Part shown: piece after piece, positions 537 to 44,781 of the stretch
Layout: the number at the start of each line of letters is the position of its first letter
Position numbering within the stretch: the stretch's first letter is position 1
Sequence record: OL362274.1
Source: Escherichia phage HC6
Reading direction: 5' to 3' (one strand)
DNA length: 47,726 nucleotides
Position numbers and translations under genes: made by a program
Notes under the pieces: generated by a model
Seen by the model: only the letters and a program-made list of their open reading frames with translations
The model's database searches: none
What the model was told of the DNA's origin: nothing

Positions 537-1953
537 AAAAAGACTCTCAAGTGTGGCAATCGAAAAACTTGAACAGGCGGTTGGAAACTCAACTTCAAAG
601 CCTGAGTCTGCTGTATTTGGCATTGTTAACAAACTGCTTGCCGATGGTACGCCTAATGTTATAAAGCGCCTAAAAATGACATCAACAGGCGTATCTGAAA
701 CAAACGAAGAACCAACAATCCTCATTCCCGAGAGAATGGAATTACTGCTTTATCCTCGCCGTTTCAAAGTGTTCTATGGAGGTAGGGGCAGCGGAAAGAC
801 GGCTAACGTTGTTTCTTACCTTATAGAAAAGGCAAGATTTCGCAACAGCCGCGTCGGATGTTTCCGTGAGATACAGAACTCAATCAAAGAATCAAGCTAT
901 GCCGAACTGGTTGATGAGATAAACAGAAAAGGCCACGCTCAGGAATACCGTTGCGTGGATGGTGAGATAACACACCACTCAACGAGGTCAAAGTTTGTTT
1001 TCCGTGGCCTTTGGCGAAACATAACCGCAATCAAGGGCATGGCTGGCCTTACAGATGTATTCTGTGAAGAATCAGAAAATATCAGCCAGGTTTCATGGGA
1101 TACGCTAATCCCAACAGTCCGCGCCGCTGGCTCTGAAATTATTATTGTTTTTAACCCAAACAAAGAGACGGACCCGACATGGACTAACTTTGTTGCGCCT
1201 TATATTGACAAGATGGTTGACGGCATATATCAGGATGATGACATCGTTGTTGTTAATGTTAATTACATCCACAACCCGTGGTTCACGGAAGAACTTAAGC
1301 AGCACATGAACCAGATGAAAGCTGTGGATTATGATCGCTACCTTTGGGTGTATGAAGGCTTATTCAACAAGCGGTCTGACGAAGCTGTTCTCGGGGGGAA
1401 ATGGCAAACACTCGACTTTGAACCATCTCCTGAGTGGGGTGGGCCTTACTACGGCATTGACTTTGGTTTTTCTCAGGATGCAACAGCAGCAACTGAATCA
1501 TATGTAGAAGATTTGGGTGATGGACGAAGAAACCTGTATATCTATCGTGACTTTGCAAAGGTTGGCCTTGAGATAACTGACACGCCGGAAGCGATGCGCT
1601 CAGCATTCCCAAATTCAGAGAAGTACAGATGGTATGGGGATTGCGCAAGACCTGAAACAATAAGCCATATACGACGCTCTGGATTCGATATTCATCCGTG
1701 CGCAAAATGGCCGGGGAGCATTGAGGACGGTATTACGTGGCTGCGTGGGTGTGACAGGATTTACGTGCACTCAAGATGCAGGCACGTCATTGAAGAGATG
1801 ACAATGTACAGCTATAAGGTGGACAAATTAACAGGTAACATACTCCCTGATATAGTTGATAAATACAATCACGCGATTGATAGTTTACGCTATGGACTTG
1901 GAGATCACATCGTTCAACGCGGTAGCGGGATGCTAATCCGGCGCAGGCGATAA
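529..1953 (+). CDS. terminase large subunit
   Basis: Walker A YGGRGSGKT about 100 aa in; 475 aa; sits before portal; ATG at 529 in same frame as track ORF 472; roughly 80-aa N-terminal extension makes start uncertain. Confidence 0.85.
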   Translation: MARKRLSSVAIEKLEQAVGNSTSKPESAVFGIVNKLLADGTPNVIKRLKMTSTGVSETNEEPTILIPERMELLLYPRRFKVFYGGRGSGKTANVVSYLIEKARFRNSRVGCFREIQNSIKESSYAELVDEINRKGHAQEYRCVDGEITHHSTRSKFVFRGLWRNITAIKGMAGLTDVFCEESENISQVSWDTLIPTVRAAGSEIIIVFNPNKETDPTWTNFVAPYIDKMVDGIYQDDDIVVVNVNYIHNPWFTEELKQHMNQMKAVDYDRYLWVYEGLFNKRSDEAVLGGKWQTLDFEPSPEWGGPYYGIDFGFSQDATAATESYVEDLGDGRRNLYIYRDFAKVGLEITDTPEAMRSAFPNSEKYRWYGDCARPETISHIRRSGFDIHPCAKWPGSIEDGITWLRGCDRIYVHSRCRHVIEEMTMYSYKVDKLTGNILPDIVDKYNHAIDSLRYGLGDHIVQRGSGMLIRRRR

Positions 1954-1969
1954 ATCCGCATCACCACAC

Positions 1970-2001
1970 TTGACCAATCTACACCGAGCGCATAGTATAA
2001 T
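1970..2001 (+). promoter_or_regulatory. sigma70-like promoter (TTGACC - 17 nt - TAGTAT) overlapping AATCTACAcc motif
   Basis: hexamers read directly; 30 nt upstream of ATG 2030. Confidence 0.4.
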
Positions 2002-2029
2002 CTACATCAGGCTTATCGGAGATATCACT

Positions 2030-2236
2030 ATGCGCAGCTATGCAGGGTTCACACAGGAGGAGAAAGAGCAGGTTTATTCACTGGCTCGGGCTGGTGTGCC
2101 AGATGAGGTGATTTGCCGTCGGTATGACATCGACGAGGATTTCCTGCTGCGCGTTATTGATGATGTCTTCGTTAACCTGCAAGAGAAGCGCGGATATAAA
2201 GGTATCTGCTGCAAGAATGATTTTTTGAGAGGGTGA
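2030..2236 (+). CDS. hypothetical small protein
   Basis: 68 aa from ATG 2030 (MRSYAGFTQEEKEQ...), GGAGA RBS about 8 nt upstream; in frame with track ORF 1970. Confidence 0.45.
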   Translation: MRSYAGFTQEEKEQVYSLARAGVPDEVICRRYDIDEDFLLRVIDDVFVNLQEKRGYKGICCKNDFLRG

Positions 2237-2240
2237 TGTG

Positions 2241-2435
2241 ATGATTAAGATGAGCAAGATGAGCAACAGAAGCAAGGTTTGCAGGATTGCTTTATTGCCA
2301 ATCTTCCTGCCTGTGTGGTTGTTATGGGTTTTATTTTCTGGGGCGAGAAATCTATTTGAGTATCTTGAATTTTGTCAGGCAAAGGTTATACGAAAATTCC
2401 ATGATGTCATTGATAAGTGGTTTCCGCTTGGTTGA
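2241..2435 (+). CDS. small membrane protein
   Basis: 64 aa, hydrophobic LLPIFLPVWLLWVLF; preceded by GAGGGTGATGTG-ATG junction. Confidence 0.5.
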   Translation: MIKMSKMSNRSKVCRIALLPIFLPVWLLWVLFSGARNLFEYLEFCQAKVIRKFHDVIDKWFPLG

Positions 2436-2444
2436 GGTGATGTG

Positions 2445-2612
2445 ATGAAAATTGAAGAAACAGTTAACTGCATGGCGATTAATGTGTTCACGGATTGCGA
2501 TACCATTTGCGTGCAGGATTTCACTGGCGATTATGTCAGGATTGACAAACACCAAGCCGCGCAGCTAATCGAAGTCCTGCAACGCTGGGTTAATGGTGAG
2601 GAAATTGAGTGA
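2445..2612 (+). CDS. hypothetical small protein
   Basis: 55 aa (MKIEETVNCMAINVF...), below track cutoff; GAGGTGATGTG-ATG junction; stop TGA overlaps next ATG. Confidence 0.45.
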   Translation: MKIEETVNCMAINVFTDCDTICVQDFTGDYVRIDKHQAAQLIEVLQRWVNGEEIE

Positions 2613-2797
2613 TGAGTGTTTATTTCATTCATGCTGAAGTGCTTGATGGTGGTGATGTTGTTACCAAGGTTTGCGCGACATCTACGGCATCAAACGCCAG
2701 TGAAGCGTTTGATTGGTTTTTGGGTTGCGAATTGGTTGTAAAGTACGAAATAAAAGGCTACGACGTCATCATTGATAAACTGGAAAAGGTGGAGTGA
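2612..2797 (+). CDS. hypothetical small protein
   Basis: 61 aa; ATG 2612 overlaps upstream TGA; ends ...KVE* within GGTGGAGTGATG junction. Confidence 0.5.
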   Translation: MSVYFIHAEVLDGGDVVTKVCATSTASNASEAFDWFLGCELVVKYEIKGYDVIIDKLEKVE

Positions 2798-3015
2798 TGA
2801 AAGCTGTCAAAACAATCCTGTTCTGCATCATCAACCCGCACCTGATTGTGATGCTAATCTGCGGCGCCATGCTTATTGGCGCGAGAAAGTCGCTTTATTA
2901 TCTTTCCGATAAGCTGGATGACGCGGCGCGTTACATTCAGAAGATTGATCATAAACTCGGGTCGAAGTCATACCCCGCATGGTTCAGATCGCTTGTTGAT
3001 GATGAGGTGGAGTGA
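2797..3015 (+). CDS. small membrane protein
   Basis: 72 aa; TM-like ILFCIINPHLIVMLICGAMLIGA; TGATG overlap at both ends. Confidence 0.5.
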   Translation: MKAVKTILFCIINPHLIVMLICGAMLIGARKSLYYLSDKLDDAARYIQKIDHKLGSKSYPAWFRSLVDDEVE

Positions 3016-3176
3016 TGGCGCTATTCTGGTCGTTCTGGATTCCACTTAATTTTATGTTCTGGTGGTTTATAGCAGCCGGAGTGCAAGAGTCAAGCAAGAT
3101 ACATTTCATGATTAGTTCATTTTTCGCTGTGATGACTGGTGTTGTGCCATGCTTGTTGTATCAATATTTCAAATAG
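3015..3176 (+). CDS. small membrane protein
   Basis: 53 aa (MALFWSFWIPLNFMFWWFIAAG...), below track cutoff; start overlaps upstream stop. Confidence 0.45.
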   Translation: MALFWSFWIPLNFMFWWFIAAGVQESSKIHFMISSFFAVMTGVVPCLLYQYFK

Positions 3177-3186
3177 AGGTGGAGTG

Positions 3187-3384
3187 ATGCATTTCAAATC
3201 ACTAAATACCATAAGGAACGAGATGGTTGGTGGCAAATATAAAAACCACAGAGACGAAGTAGTAACCGTTGTTAATGTTGTTGGCGCTGGCGGTGGTTAT
3301 CAGGTCCATTTTAATTACGGCATGCCATACAATGTGGTTTGCGGACTTGGCAAGTTCAGGCAGCGATACCCGCATAAGGTTTAG
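3187..3384 (+). CDS. hypothetical small protein
   Basis: 65 aa from ATG 3187 after GAGGTGGAGTG; in frame with track ORF 3139. Confidence 0.5.
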   Translation: MHFKSLNTIRNEMVGGKYKNHRDEVVTVVNVVGAGGGYQVHFNYGMPYNVVCGLGKFRQRYPHKV

Positions 3385-3404
3385 CCATATACCATCCATG
3401 CTAT

Positions 3405-3435
3405 AATCCCATCCAACGTGATGGGATTTTTTATT
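3405..3435 (+). terminator. rho-independent terminator
   Basis: ATCCCAT / ATGGGAT 7-bp stem, 8-nt loop, then TTTTTTATT. Confidence 0.6.
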
Positions 3436-3443
3436 GGTGACAT

Positions 3444-4856
3444 ATGTCAAAAATTGATGCACTAAACGCTTATATACGCGACCGCGTAGCGAACAATAAC
3501 CGGGCGATCCAGCAGCAACGGCTTTGCGCTGGCGGGAAGAATCTGGACCAGAAGCGAGAGTTCATGTGGAAGGAACTTGGCTACCCGCAGGAAATCACCG
3601 CCGAGATGTTCCGCTATGCCTATGAGCGACACCCAGCCGCCGCCGCTGGAATTAACCGCATTATTAATAAATGTTGGCAGAAATACCCTGAAGTTGTCGA
3701 AGATGGCGAGGATGACAAGAACTCAACGACATGGGAGCTGTCCATCAACGACATGATGAAGCGCGCCTACCCGTTCATCAAGGAGGCTGATAAGCGCAAC
3801 GCCATCAACCGCTATTCCGCTGTTATCCTGCAAATCCGTGACGGCAAACAGTGGAGTGAGCCTGTAGACATTACAAAAACCCGCCGCATTAAAGATAAAT
3901 CCATCGCTCGCTTTATTCCGGTATGGGAAGAGCAGCTACGCGTTAGCGCATGGAATAACGACGAAACCAGCGAAGACTACGGAATGCCTGAGATGTACGA
4001 ATATCAGGAAAGCGCCGTGGAGGACTTCGATAGCGATGGCAAGCCTGAGCGTTCCGTGCAGATTCACCCTGACCGCATCATCATTCTGGCTGAGGGTAGT
4101 TTTGACGGCAGTATGTTCAGTGGCATCCCGATGTTGCGTGCTGGCTACAATAGCCTTATCGACATGGCTAAGGTTTCAGGTAGTTCAGCAGAAGGATTCC
4201 TGAAGAATGCCAGCCGTCAACTGGCTGTTAACTACACGAAGGACAACGTAACGCCAGCAAGCCTTGCGCAGTCTATGGGTGTCGATATTGAAGAACTCAC
4301 TGACATCATGAATGAGAACATCGAAGCGCTAAACTCAGGCATCGACGCAGCTATGTTCACAATGGGGGCGGATGCAAAGGTGCTTGCCGTAACGCCAGCC
4401 GACCCGAAACCAACATGGGAAGTGGCTGCCAACCAGTTCGCTGCATCAATGGCGCTTCCGTTCACCGTCATTTTTGGTCAGCAAACCGGACGCCTTGCGA
4501 GTGATGAGGACAAGATGCAGGAGGCGATGACAGCCAAGCAGCGCCGCGAAACGTGGGTTGATTATGTCATCTCAATGTTCGTTGAGCGCATGATTCAGTT
4601 CGGCATTGTCGATAAAGCACCGGCAAATGGCTACAAGGTTAAGTGGGATGATCTGCTTGCCCCATCAGAGCTGGATAAAGCTGAATTGCTGTCCAAGCTC
4701 GCCACTGCGAACAAGTCCTTCTTTGATGCTGGTCAATCTGCACTGCTGACCGTCGATGAAGCTCGCGGCATGGTTGGCATGGAGCCAATTGAACTTGACG
4801 AAAGCTATCGCGAAGACACACCGCCGGAAGATGAAAATGAAGATACTCCGGTTTAA
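3444..4856 (+). CDS. portal protein
   Basis: 470 aa; between terminase and Mu F-like gene; acidic C-terminus ([11 protein letters not shown]); assignment by size, position and composition. Confidence 0.7.
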
Positions 4857-17327: not shown

Positions 17328-17500
17328 TTGATCACCTCAAATTTATATTTAGGCTCAGGCCATGTCGCGGTTCCGTCTTCCCATCGGACATATACTGGTT
17401 GAATTTTGTCCTCAATATCTACCTTCTCAACTACGCAAGGTAGCGGGTCATATTCTGGAATGATTATCTTATCTCCAACTTTTAAATCAGTTAATTCCAT
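17324..17500 (-). CDS. hypothetical small protein
   Basis: 58 aa (MELTDLKVGDKIIIPEYDPL...); ATGA overlaps at both ends; below track cutoff. Confidence 0.4.
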   Translation of the reverse strand: MELTDLKVGDKIIIPEYDPLPCVVEKVDIEDKIQPVYVRWEDGTATWPEPKYKFEVIK

Positions 17501-17673
17501 CACTTCACCTTAATCATGTGTTGTTTTGCAACCTTCAGGCATTCTTCAAAAATGCCGCCATTCTTAGCGCTCTGATTGCGCTTGTAATACTGAATTGCCA
17601 CATCAATTGCCATCTGGTCGATGTCAGGCAACTTGGTGCGAAGTTGTTTTTCAATGAATTGTTCTGGTGTCAT
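17500..17673 (-). CDS. hypothetical small protein
   Basis: 57 aa (MTPEQFIEKQLRTKLPDIDQ...); TAATG overlap with methyltransferase stop. Confidence 0.4.
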   Translation of the reverse strand: MTPEQFIEKQLRTKLPDIDQMAIDVAIQYYKRNQSAKNGGIFEECLKVAKQHMIKVK

Positions 17674-22682: not shown

Positions 22683-23180
22683 AAGTGCTGGTTTAAGCAT
22701 TGCCAGCGTGCTTTCTTAACATCCAGCCCCGTAACCCATACGTACCCCTACATATGATTGCGATAATGCTGGATATTAAGTGTTGTGGTGGCCGGTGCTG
22801 ATCTCCGGCATAAGGCGCTTATTCGGCGGCGTCGAGCTTGCTTATTCGCTTGAGCCATCCTCGTGAGTCAGCCACGTCCCACTGCGCATCAGCCTGCGCA
22901 TTCACCACAACGGAAAGAGCACTGATGCGCTCACTTGGGACTCCTTAGCCATAACCCACGGGCTTCTGGTACACCAATGCTCTTACCTGTTGTGTTCCCT
23001 GACTTATTAATCACACCTCAGGGACGCAGTGCGCCGAATTTGTTTACAAGGAATCGGAAGACCTTGCTGACTTACAGGCTATTACGCCGCCATCAGAACA
23101 ACATCATCGTTTGCATTTATCTTTGTGGTCAGTTTCTAAAAAGTCCGCAAAGTCGCTCACGAAAACTATCTGAAATACAA
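22683..23180. other. ORF-free structured region, candidate ncRNA or cis element
   Basis: about 500 bp with no convincing ORF; long imperfect hairpin 22876..22941 and hairpin TCCCTGA...TCAGGGA near 22993..23021. Confidence 0.3.
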
Positions 23181-23222
23181 TCTACACCACAAAATAATCG
23201 CTGTCAACACCTGTGATATAAT
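23181..23222 (+). promoter_or_regulatory. promoter with extended -10 (TGaTATAAT) and upstream AATCTACACC / TGTCAACAC elements
   Basis: nearly same architecture as 24554..24603; 37 nt upstream of major tail gene. Confidence 0.45.
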
Positions 23223-24553: not shown

Positions 24554-24603
24554 GAATCTACATCACCACCTCGCAGGTGTCAACACTACTGAGATGATAT
24601 AAT
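24554..24603 (+). promoter_or_regulatory. promoter with extended -10 (TGaTATAAT) and upstream AATCTACATC / TGTCAACAC elements
   Basis: shares element order with 23181..23222; upstream of tail chaperone and tape-measure genes. Confidence 0.45.
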
Positions 24604-34426: not shown

Positions 34427-34918
34427 TCAGAAGGGAATGTCATCATCGAAGTCCATCGGAGTCTCATTGCCTCCTTGTTGGCTTTGTTGTTTTGGTTGCT
34501 GCTGTTGTTGTCGTTGCGGTTGTTGGCCTGATTGCTGGCGTGGTTGTTGTTGCCCTGCATCATCCCGCTTTCCACCAAGCATCTGCATAACACCGCCCAT
34601 CTGTGGAATTACAATCTCCGTTGTATATCGGTCAACTCCATTGCTGTCAGTCCACTTACGAGTGCGAAGTTGTCCTTCGATATAAACCTGCGAGCCTTTG
34701 CGAAGGTATTCTCCTGCAACTTCTGCAAGTTTTCCGAAGATGACCACGCGATGCCATTCAGTCTGCTCTTTCTTTTCTCCTGTCTGCTTATCTTTCCACT
34801 GCTCAGATGTTGCAACAGAAAGATTGGCAATTGCAGAGCCTGATGCTGAATATTTAACTTCAGGGTCGTTACCAACTCGACCAAGGATTATGCACTTATT
34901 AATACCAATCGAAGACAT
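34427..34918 (-). CDS. ssb: single-stranded DNA-binding protein
   Basis: 163 aa; OB-fold-like N-terminus, Gln/Gly-rich linker, canonical acidic tail DFDDDIPF. Confidence 0.95.
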
Positions 34919-35436
34919 TACTTGAATCTCCCGTTTTTATCTCTTAATCTGCCATTATGATTCTCTGTGGCGTGTAATGATGCGTGCTCTGACTTCGTCA
35001 TAAGCATTAGGTTACTTGGATGGTTGTTTGTTTTATCATGGTCTATATGATGAACGCATTCATTGTGAAACAACCTCCTCCCAATAATGCCTTCCATAAC
35101 TACGACATGTTCTCCTCTTCCTTTGTTTTCACCCATAGTTATCTCGACATAACCATTCGGTTTTACAGAGCGACCCTTGCCAACTCCTTTCTTTGATTTT
35201 GATATATTTTGCTTCCATTCTTCAGTAAACTTTCGTTTTTTACCCCTAAGTCCTGAACCAAGTCTTCCCTCTGCGGCAGCAATTCTTATTGCATCTCCTC
35301 TGCTTCTCAATATTCCGGCTTTCTTAAATCTAAACCTCAATGTTGACATGGCTATTCCTGTTTCATTGGAGATTTGAGGGATGCTCATGCCAGACAAATA
35401 CATATCAAACTCATTCATATGCACCTCCTTGTGCAA
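34918..35436 (-). CDS. HNH endonuclease
   Basis: [30 protein letters not shown] motif; N-terminal HTH-like region; start 35436 or 35418. Confidence 0.8.
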
Positions 35437-40786: not shown

Positions 40787-40824
40787 TTCTACGTCAGTTA
40801 GCTTATACTCAATCTACACCAACA
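40787..40824. promoter_or_regulatory. divergent promoter region with paired TCTACRYCA motifs
   Basis: TTTCTACGTCAG and TCAATCTACACCAACA between divergent genes 40764 and 40840. Confidence 0.4.
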
Positions 40825-44750: not shown

Positions 44751-44781
44751 GTTGACGTAGAATCATCATTGATGTAGATTG
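44751..44781. promoter_or_regulatory. promoter region with paired inverted TCTACRYCA motifs
   Basis: GTTGACGTAGAATC and TTGATGTAGATTG 30 nt upstream of ATG 44811. Confidence 0.4.

Follow-up and report, generated by a model that had tools for sequence, protein, structure and literature searches.

The DNA analyzed here is a 47,726-nucleotide (nt) stretch of Escherichia phage HC6 (sequence record OL362274.1; hereafter the window), in which seven small plus-strand genes lie head to tail between the large terminase gene terL and the portal gene and form what we refer to as the cassette (2030-3384). The junctions between these genes carry a repeated linker, in which a Shine-Dalgarno sequence of the GAGGTG type is followed by GTG and then by the ATG of the next gene. 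We conclude that this linker is real, non-random and specific to the cassette, and that it marks the shuffling of single genes. Judged from sequence comparisons, it probably also mediates this shuffling. The explanation that we favor, and hold to be reasonably likely, is that the linker is a translational-coupling junction that doubles as a short-homology joint for the modular shuffling of single genes in a hyperplastic accessory operon.

Sequence identity in the region is 100% with Escherichia phage HC8A and 99.9% with phage 6947 (ON637251.1); window coordinates equal those of the phage 6947 record plus 23. The Skatevirus cluster, to which such siphoviruses with genomes of 46-48 kb belong, has Roufvirus as its outgroup (PMC11990801). 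For comparison we used 53 terL-portal cassettes, from 18 GenBank phages, 34 IMG/VR sequences and the window, of which 45 are unique; counts drawn from this set refer to sequences and arrangements and not to independent events on a tree. A preliminary description of the DNA, made from the sequence alone, had proposed six consecutive genes of 53 to 72 amino acids (aa) in a cassette spanning 2226-3190. We found these six genes, with products of 64, 55, 61, 72, 53 and 65 aa and starts at 2241, 2445, 2612, 2797, 3015 and 3187, but the proposed extent was too narrow, as a seventh gene (2030-2236), a promoter-like site and a terminator lie outside it or at its edge.

Named by family, the plus-strand genes of the cassette begin with F01 (2030..2236; 68 aa, phrog_13301), which is invariant and present in all 45 unique cassettes. 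It is followed by F11 (2241..2435; 64 aa, a predicted membrane protein with one hydrophobic segment), F03 (2445..2612; 55 aa, with a hypervariable N-terminal part and the conserved C-terminus ...QRWVNGEEIE), F02 (2612..2797; 61 aa, with conserved ends MSVYF... and ...DKLEKVE around a variable core), F08 (2797..3015; 72 aa, a predicted membrane protein), F04 (3015..3176; 53 aa, a hydrophobic predicted membrane protein) and F09 (3187..3384; 65 aa, phrog_36357). The products of 2241-2435, 2797-3015 and 3015-3176 each contain a hydrophobic 19-residue window with a Kyte-Doolittle mean of at least 1.6, which bears out the earlier proposal that at least three cassette genes encode membrane proteins. 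Scans of the seven proteins against Pfam, PHROGs and PADLOC gave no functional assignment, and a PDB sequence search with F01 returned no significant match.

The junction strings quoted in the preliminary description were all present where it had placed them, all on the plus strand. Junction 1, GAGAGGGTGATGTGATG (2227..2243), contains the F01 stop (TGA, 2234-2236) ahead of the ATG at 2241; this stop overlaps an out-of-frame ATG that is itself followed by TGA (ATGTGA, 2236-2241), creating a one-codon open reading frame before the F11 start. Junction 2, TGAGGTGATGTGATG (2433..2447), opens with the stop (TGA, 2433-2435), ends with the ATG at 2445 and, as read from the sequence, has TGA in all three frames, so an incoming frame would close before the start. 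The core of junction 3, GAGGAAATTGAGTGATG (2598-2614, within an island at 2590..2625), is a true TGATG overlap that lacks GGTG. Junctions 4 and 5 are the first two copies of AGGTGGAGTGATG (2787..2799 and 3005..3017), each of which encodes ...VE* and forms a true TGATG overlap, and junction 6 (3174..3189) consists of TAG and a third, non-coding copy. Repeated in the window are thirteen-mer AGGTGGAGTGATG, exactly, at 2787, 3005 and 3177, and GGTGATGTGATGA, at 2232 and 2436.

Some details of the earlier reading of these junctions had to be revised. A TGATG stop-start overlap had been claimed for every junction; it exists at 2612, 2797 and 3015, but at 2241, 2445 and 3187 the TGA within GTGATG is not the upstream stop, because the actual stops (TGA 2234-2236, TGA 2433-2435 and TAG 3174-3176) lie 4, 9 and 10 nt before the ATG. 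The six stop-to-start gaps in the window are accordingly -1, -1, -1, 4, 9 and 10 nt. GAGGTG had been ascribed to every junction, but junction 3 lacks GGTG, and only two upstream proteins, rather than three, end in Val-Glu (...EKVE and ...DDEVE), the third GGTGGAGTGATG copy (3177-3189) being non-coding.

The linker is strongly enriched in the cassette. The motif GGTGNNGTGATG has six matches in the window, five of which are cassette junctions, against 0.10 expected, and none of 100 shuffled sequences reached six. We found the full motif at five of the six cassette junctions and before one of 76 other genes. GTG directly abuts ATG at all six cassette junctions in comparison to three of the 76 other genes with an ATG start (Fisher p = 2.4e-7) and to 2 of 33 other small genes of this phage. 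Across the collected cassettes, in which the consensus is GAGGTGGAGTG / GAGGTGATGTG, collapsing the junctions by family pair left 57 types, and 74-86% of these have GTG at positions -3 to -1 (0.8-1.2 bits). The other 76 genes are A-rich at these positions, where the information content does not exceed 0.38 bits, and most of their overlapping stops take the form TAATG. GAGGTGA(T) pairs with 16S rRNA at its 3' end, and GAGGTGA by itself is frequent as a Shine-Dalgarno sequence in the rest of this genome. Thus, the GAGGTG half of the linker is a generic extended Shine-Dalgarno sequence, and the cassette-specific part is the RNGTG-ATG half with its fixed spacing. The preliminary description had noted that its proposal would fall if the junctions shared only a generic ribosome-binding site (RBS) with nothing conserved past GGAG. 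As the GTG at -3 to -1 is conserved in cassettes and rare at the A-rich positions of other genes, the similarity extends beyond a generic RBS.

The sole full-motif copy outside the cassette, GGTGAAGTGATG at 17498-17509 on the minus strand, precedes a 58-aa gene in another head-to-tail run of small genes. The product of this gene is unrelated to all cassette families. In an exact scan of IMG/VR for GAAAAGGTGGAGTGATG, 33 stretches were recovered, and every one with F02 context belonged to the cluster studied here. Nine other stretches (L058, L059, L061, L071, L073, L080, L085, L086 and L087) are flanked by unrelated sequence and appear to be fortuitous or unrelated hits.

Gene content at this locus varies widely among relatives. 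Between the F01 start and the portal start lie ~300 to ~1800 nt, with one to eight genes, and unique cassettes measure 396-1899 nt. Clustering of the encoded proteins gave ~22 recurrent small-gene families. As the six proteins encoded downstream of F01 in the window fall into six separate, unrelated families, we could rule out tandem duplication as the origin of these genes. Across 160 well-defined junctions, this class of linker joins 57 distinct pairs of neighbors, and it is present between many unrelated genes. F01 is followed by 12 different families, F02 by 8, F03 by 5, F04 by 4 and F08 by 4, while F02 and F05 are preceded by 8 and 7 families, respectively. The check suggested at the outset, that the same linker should surround different small genes in related phages, was borne out: GAAAAGGTGGAGTG|ATG after the ...EKVE* end of F02 precedes 8 families, and linkers precede 12 families after F01, 5 after the ...GEEIE* end of F03 and 4 after the 53-aa membrane gene F04. 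Close spacing is also maintained, with a gap of -1 at 67 of the 160 junctions and of no more than 10 nt at 135.

Two features of this variation bear on how it arose. Gene order is permuted among relatives (F02-F12-F03 in comparison to F12-F03-F02, and F05-F06 in comparison to F06-F05), so loss from a single ancestral array cannot explain the cassettes. In addition, the upstream part of a junction tracks the upstream gene, while its last bases sometimes track the downstream gene (for example, GAGCG before F14 and GTGTTA before F16), which places exchange points inside the linker. The motif is also kept in the distant Roufvirus-like phages.

Breakpoints in homology fall within the linker. When the unique cassettes were compared all against all by blastn, homology blocks had 72% of their right ends and 51% of their left ends between -25 and +10 of a start, in comparison to 13% for random positions. 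Right ends peaked at 0 to +10 and left ends at -25 to -5 of the start, an offset which indicates that the block that ends and the block that begins overlap in the linker. Adjacent genes also have discordant closest relatives. F03 of the window is 94% identical to that of Sf11 while the adjacent F02 is 75% identical; window F02 is 94% identical to its counterpart in L024, F04 is 99% identical to that of ZCEC08, and F08 is 93% identical to that of a bat-faeces Roufvirus-like phage whose F01 shows only 34% nucleotide and 54% protein identity. F08 is common to Roufvirus-like Klebsiella, Aeromonas and bat-faeces phages at 85-93% nucleotide identity, and in these three the shared F08 block has GAGTGATG as its left boundary and GAGGTG(G/A)AGTGATG as its right one, the genes beyond each boundary being unrelated.

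Variants with the structure of linker-to-linker events were also found. The F02>F04 joint of ZCEC08 and Bas77 is the one expected from a crossover between the window 13-mers at 2787 and 3005, and the F02>F09 joint of Skate is the one expected from a crossover between those at 2787 and 3177. In one relative (L036), F03 and F02 are separated by an HNH/AP2-like gene that carries a GGAGATTGAGTG direct repeat on each flank. Block ends, discordant histories and these precise deletion and insertion variants all place joints in the linker, consistent with the earlier suggestion that linkers may serve as short-homology boundaries for shuffling.

Conservation around the junctions reaches beyond the linker itself. 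Among 19 F03-F02 dicistrons, mean pairwise identity was 92-97% over 2590-2625 and 83-99% over 2776-2799, in comparison to 30-55% inside the genes, and these islands of 25-40 nt were conserved through third codon positions. F03 and F02 have strongly conserved termini (...HQAAQLIEVLQRWVNGEEIE and MSVYF...DKLEKVE) and cores of 30-55% nucleotide identity among homologs in L002-L054. Alleles may have been replaced by way of these ends, or the cores may be under diversifying selection.

The linker is conserved at the level of DNA or RNA. It is coding in some contexts (...VE* and ...IE*) and non-coding after F01, F04, F07, F11 and F12, and GTG-ATG is retained by 69% of the copies in which the final 8 nt do not encode protein. 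Further, translation of the linker accounts for the -VE with which the products of the unrelated families F02, F08, F21 and F22 end. Both the conserved non-coding copies and the shared tails lead us to place the conservation in the nucleic acid.

With respect to translation, the junctions have the anatomy of a coupled operon, in which the stop overlaps the next start or lies within ~10 nt of it and the Shine-Dalgarno sequence is inside the upstream reading frame. The predicted Shine-Dalgarno duplex was stronger on average for cassette genes than for other genes (-10.4 and -7.7 kcal/mol, respectively; p = 0.03), and RNA folds of the cassette junctions contained no common or conserved hairpin. 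Translational coupling is consistent with this anatomy, with duplex strength and accessibility (see below) as weak hints.

From these data we propose the following model. An operon between terL and portal would consist of one promoter-like site, the invariant F01, one to seven further genes arranged head to tail and a hairpin terminator, with a 12-15-nt linker at each joint that combines the extended Shine-Dalgarno GAGGTG, the upstream stop (often a TGA within the linker) and GTG followed by ATG. In the mRNA, each start lies no more than 10 nt from the stop before it, an arrangement that would couple the translation of successive small genes along a single transcript, presumably expressed from the promoter-like site. 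In the DNA, linkers and 10-25 conserved flanking bases would act as direct repeats within a genome and as shared homology between co-infecting genomes, providing 13-40 nt of homology in both situations. Crossovers at linkers would delete, insert, replace or reorder whole genes and would each time restore a working stop, Shine-Dalgarno sequence and start, such that joints would be products of recombination at the linker rather than of selection alone. The phage encodes an SSB, an AAA_24 (Sak4-like) protein and a DUF3799 PD-(D/E)XK protein, and Sak4/Rad52-like recombinase modules anneal short or diverged homologies. Candidate agents of the proposed exchange are thus this annealing module (the AAA_24/Sak4-like protein, the PD-(D/E)XK nuclease and SSB) or functions of the host.

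Several observations weigh against this model. The linker is a degenerate class, as junctions with unrelated flanks share a mean of 7.2 of 14 nt (4.4 for other genes) and only 5% of them share an exact run of at least 10 nt, which is very short homology for efficient recombination. By a hand count, about a dozen of 173 listed gene-gene joints (~7%) are scarred, with gaps of 27-161 nt, for example where remnants of the F03 3' end lie upstream of F02 although F03 is missing; some events, therefore, did not use the linker. The difference in Shine-Dalgarno accessibility, which is lower in the cassette than in other genes (0.37 and 0.48, respectively; p = 0.05), is marginal. Mosaicism, to a lesser degree, is found in two linker-free small-gene clusters of these phages as well: 12 of 177 and 7 of 133 records covered at least 80% of these control clusters as query, in comparison to 3 of 172 for the cassette, and in Skate one control cluster is covered in full (100%, at 96% identity), in comparison to only 38% of the cassette. 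The linker is consequently not necessary for mosaicism in these phages. Moreover, selection for intact genes after random illegitimate recombination would also leave breakpoints at gene boundaries.

These points fit an alternative in which the linker is a translation signal only, kept by selection for expression, and joints arise by illegitimate recombination anywhere, with products at gene boundaries surviving. The GAGGTGA core, a normal Shine-Dalgarno sequence in this phage, the stronger than average Shine-Dalgarno sequences of the cassette, a degenerate linker whose exact shared runs are mostly below 10 nt, the scarred joints and the mosaic linker-free clusters all favor it, as does the precedent of mycobacteriophage start-associated repeats of 13 bp with a proposed role in translation (PMC3203893). 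Nevertheless, we consider this explanation unlikely, as it does not account for junction islands of 25-40 nt at 92-99% identity, third codon positions included, between alleles that are 30-55% identical elsewhere, nor for block ends that overlap in the linker rather than meeting at one point. Insertions flanked by direct linker repeats, variants that equal predicted repeat-to-repeat deletions and the rarity of GTG-ATG among other small genes of the phage also argue against it. A shared need of the upstream proteins for a -VE or -IE tail, with the nucleotide repeat as a by-product, would agree with the ends of F02, F08, F21 and F22 (-VE) and F03 (-IE), yet we view it as very improbable and refuted as a sole cause: relatives have this 13-mer in non-coding form after F04, F07, F11 and F12, as does the window at 3177-3189, GTG-ATG is retained in 69% of non-coding copies, and a two-residue tail common to unrelated proteins is better explained by a translated linker than by a common function. 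Chance likeness among ordinary ribosome-binding sites, for which the GAGG, GGAG or GGTG cores upstream of 50 of the 76 other genes might speak, is hardly credible given the excess of GGTGNNGTGATG and the GTG-ATG contrast reported above, and is refuted by conservation of the motif in 45 cassettes, including those of distant Roufvirus-like phages.

Dedicated machinery is the remaining explanation to be weighed. In its broader form, which we regard as improbable, the linker, beyond offering passive short homology, would serve a programmed exchange of cassettes in a virulent-type siphovirus as its site of recognition or crossover. Single genes would be excised and captured, possibly as circles, with F01, cassette-borne HNH/AP2 endonucleases or the Sak4-like/PD-(D/E)XK module as candidate drivers. 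If this were true, the phage population would share, across genera from Skatevirus to Roufvirus, a pool of membrane and host-interaction genes undergoing rapid reshuffling. A more specific form, to which we assign a still lower probability, holds that the linker is the target of an integron-like or mini-circle-like exchange system, with the F01 product or HNH endonucleases recognizing or cutting it. The invariant F01 at the head of every cassette, the HNH/AP2 genes flanked by linker repeats within some cassettes, the movement of a single cassette gene (F08) from linker to linker between distant phages and the precedent of the mini-circles of T4-type phages (PMC2839356) speak for such a system. 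Against it, no integrase or recombinase domain was found in the cassette proteins and no integrase is annotated in the genome, the linker is degenerate and lacks an inverted repeat or attC-like structure, and F01 has no detectable match to a DNA-binding or nuclease family.

As for transcription, a promoter-like site, TTGACC-17 nt-TAGTAT (1970..1998, plus strand; 9 of 12 matches), is predicted upstream of F01. It is conserved in relatives of the Skatevirus cluster (-90 to -1 compared), even where extra minus-strand genes intervene between terL and the site, while the three Roufvirus-like loci have a different sequence upstream of the cassette. Promoter-like sites are not enriched over shuffled sequences in the region as a whole; those on the plus strand lie at 1828-1998, upstream of F01, two on the minus strand lie away from the junctions, and the promoter scan placed none at any of the six junctions. 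One copy of the octamer AATCTACA stands just after each hexamer of the promoter-like site (1976-1983 and 1999-2006, plus strand). This motif (extended form AATCTACAYCA) occurs six times in the window against 1.34 expected, with none of 100 shuffles reaching six, and its other copies are at 23179-23186 (+), 24555-24562 (+), 40811-40818 (+) and 44773-44780 (-). All six are intergenic and at the heads of gene blocks, and AATCTACG occurs twice at the corresponding place in Roufvirus-like relatives; AATCTACA may be a promoter-associated or operator motif of the phage.

At its 3' end, the cassette is closed by a hairpin and T-run resembling an intrinsic terminator (3405..3434, plus strand) before the portal start at 3444. 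The stems differ among relatives (CCCATC/GATGGG, CCCTC/GAGGG or CCCC/GGGG), and these compensatory changes argue that the hairpin is real; the predicted terminator at 3405-3428 is the only one in the cassette with comparative support. An extended -10-like sequence, TGcTATAAT (3399..3407, plus strand), a putative promoter element present in nearly all relatives, lies directly upstream of the hairpin and overlaps it. This composite (3397-3434) is reminiscent of the promoter-early stem-loop (PeSL) elements discussed below, and it was not repeated anywhere else in the window. With a promoter-like site ahead and a hairpin behind, the cassette looks like a self-contained transcription unit inserted in the block of head genes. 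An Rfam scan of 1900-3500 at E <= 1 returned no RNA family.

The surroundings of the cassette are variable as well. Its neighbors in the window are terL (472-1953) upstream and the portal gene (3444-4856) downstream. A second variable slot extends from the terL stop to the cassette promoter and holds one to five minus-strand genes in many relatives (L002, L006, L008, L011, L014, L015 and L017-L019); it is empty in the window, and in the bat-faeces phage one of the inserted genes encodes a putative vitamin uptake transporter. Within L002-L054, the last 120 aa of TerL fall into classes ~99% and ~71% identical to the window, and the first 120 aa of the portal protein into classes ~99/93% and ~66% identical. 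These classes combine independently, indicating that the flanking core genes are also mosaic. HNH genes are located at 24-536, adjoining terL, and at 34918-35418, adjoining the SSB/recombination module, and homing endonucleases may contribute to local recombination.

In some relatives, the cassette also carries genes of other types, as at L025 1334-1645 and L044 776-1042 (cassette coordinates). Some encode an Xre/HigA-like helix-turn-helix (HTH) protein, F21 (Pfam HTH_3, E = 8e-8), and others the 162-166-aa F12; F12, which starts MTTIAWDG, had no family match. HNH-type F15 genes, with an AP2-like domain below the Pfam cut-off, lie inside cassettes at L036 468-971, L023 615-1091 and L026 1119-1595 (cassette coordinates). 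When ten further cassette families were compared with Pfam, the only matches were the Xre-type HTH of F21 and the sub-threshold AP2 domain of the HNH-like F15.

The cassette shares features with several known systems. In the linker model of Botstein and Susskind, as outlined in two articles, short conserved boundary sequences lie at gene boundaries in lambdoid phages (PMC2839356, PMC3029335). As in the model so outlined, a short conserved sequence in the cassette flanks non-homologous modules, breakpoints coincide with it, and the joined module is correctly placed and regulated. Unlike the linkers of the classical case, the cassette linker is itself the translational joint (Shine-Dalgarno sequence, stop and start in 12-15 nt, partly coding), and the modules are single genes of 50-170 aa in one operon of a virulent-type siphovirus rather than the multi-gene blocks of temperate lambdoid phages. 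A moron, in the sense of Hendrix and Juhala as described in the same articles, is typically one gene added by an undefined and presumably illegitimate event (PMC2839356, PMC3029335). On that definition the cassette resembles a moron in being variable extra DNA between two conserved head genes, and perhaps in having its own promoter and terminator, for which the promoter-like site and the terminator-like hairpin are candidates, and differs in being a multi-gene array with internal linkers and combinatorial content from which F01 is never absent.

PeSL cassettes occupy hyperplastic regions of T4-type phages as ~70-bp units, each with a sigma70-like promoter and a terminator (Arbiol et al. 2010, PMC2839356; PMC4122927). 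Both systems place repeats between small ORFan genes in a hyperplastic region, and in both, indels and replacements between relatives end in repeats. However, the repeats described here have no promoter or hairpin and are served by one shared promoter-like site and terminator, so that insulation is translational rather than transcriptional; a PeSL-like combination of promoter and hairpin exists only at the 3' end (3399-3434), unrepeated. The authors who described PeSLs also draw an analogy with integrons (PMC2839356). Like integron arrays, the cassette has promoterless small genes in one orientation, a common upstream promoter-like site, a repeated boundary element and combinatorial content, but no integrase is annotated in the genome or was found among the cassette proteins, there is no attC-type imperfect inverted repeat, and the repeat is a translation signal. 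Since integrase and attC are both lacking, the likeness is one of analogy only.

A comparable element at translation starts is the Start-Associated Sequence (SAS) of Cluster K mycobacteriophages, with the consensus 5'-GGGATAGGAGCCC (Pope et al. 2011, PMC3203893). Both are asymmetric repeats of ~13 bp in one orientation, located at the RBS upstream of ATG, conserved beyond the pairing with 16S rRNA, associated with different gene families and sometimes holding the upstream stop. They differ in sequence (GGGATAGGAGCCC as opposed to RGGTGRNGTG here), and the cassette repeat does not match the SAS consensus. SAS elements keep a distance of 3-7 bp to the start and are spread across the genome's non-structural half, whereas the cassette repeat directly adjoins the ATG and stays within a single 1.2-kb operon. 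Also in contrast to the cassette linker, SAS was not linked to mosaic joints (PMC3203893). In the papers retrieved on these phages we saw no description of the cassette locus, and a literature search for a linker model of the RBS type returned no paper with all five of its terms.

There is a long-standing debate over whether mosaic joints in phage genomes form by homologous exchange at short linkers or by random illegitimate recombination filtered by selection. The locus described here is a compact natural case, with a 12-15-nt linker at more than 90% of joints, more than 20 interchangeable families and three exact 13-mers in one genome. Relatives resembling the predicted recombinant products already exist, and culturable members are available as BASEL phages Bas77-80 (PMC11990801), which makes the debate directly testable at this locus. 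The idea of a translation signal that makes every recombinant joint functional is also useful for the engineering of accessory-gene arrays in phages. Finally, for the phages themselves, this rapidly turning over pool of small membrane and cytoplasmic proteins provides candidates for functions in host takeover, exclusion or anti-defence.

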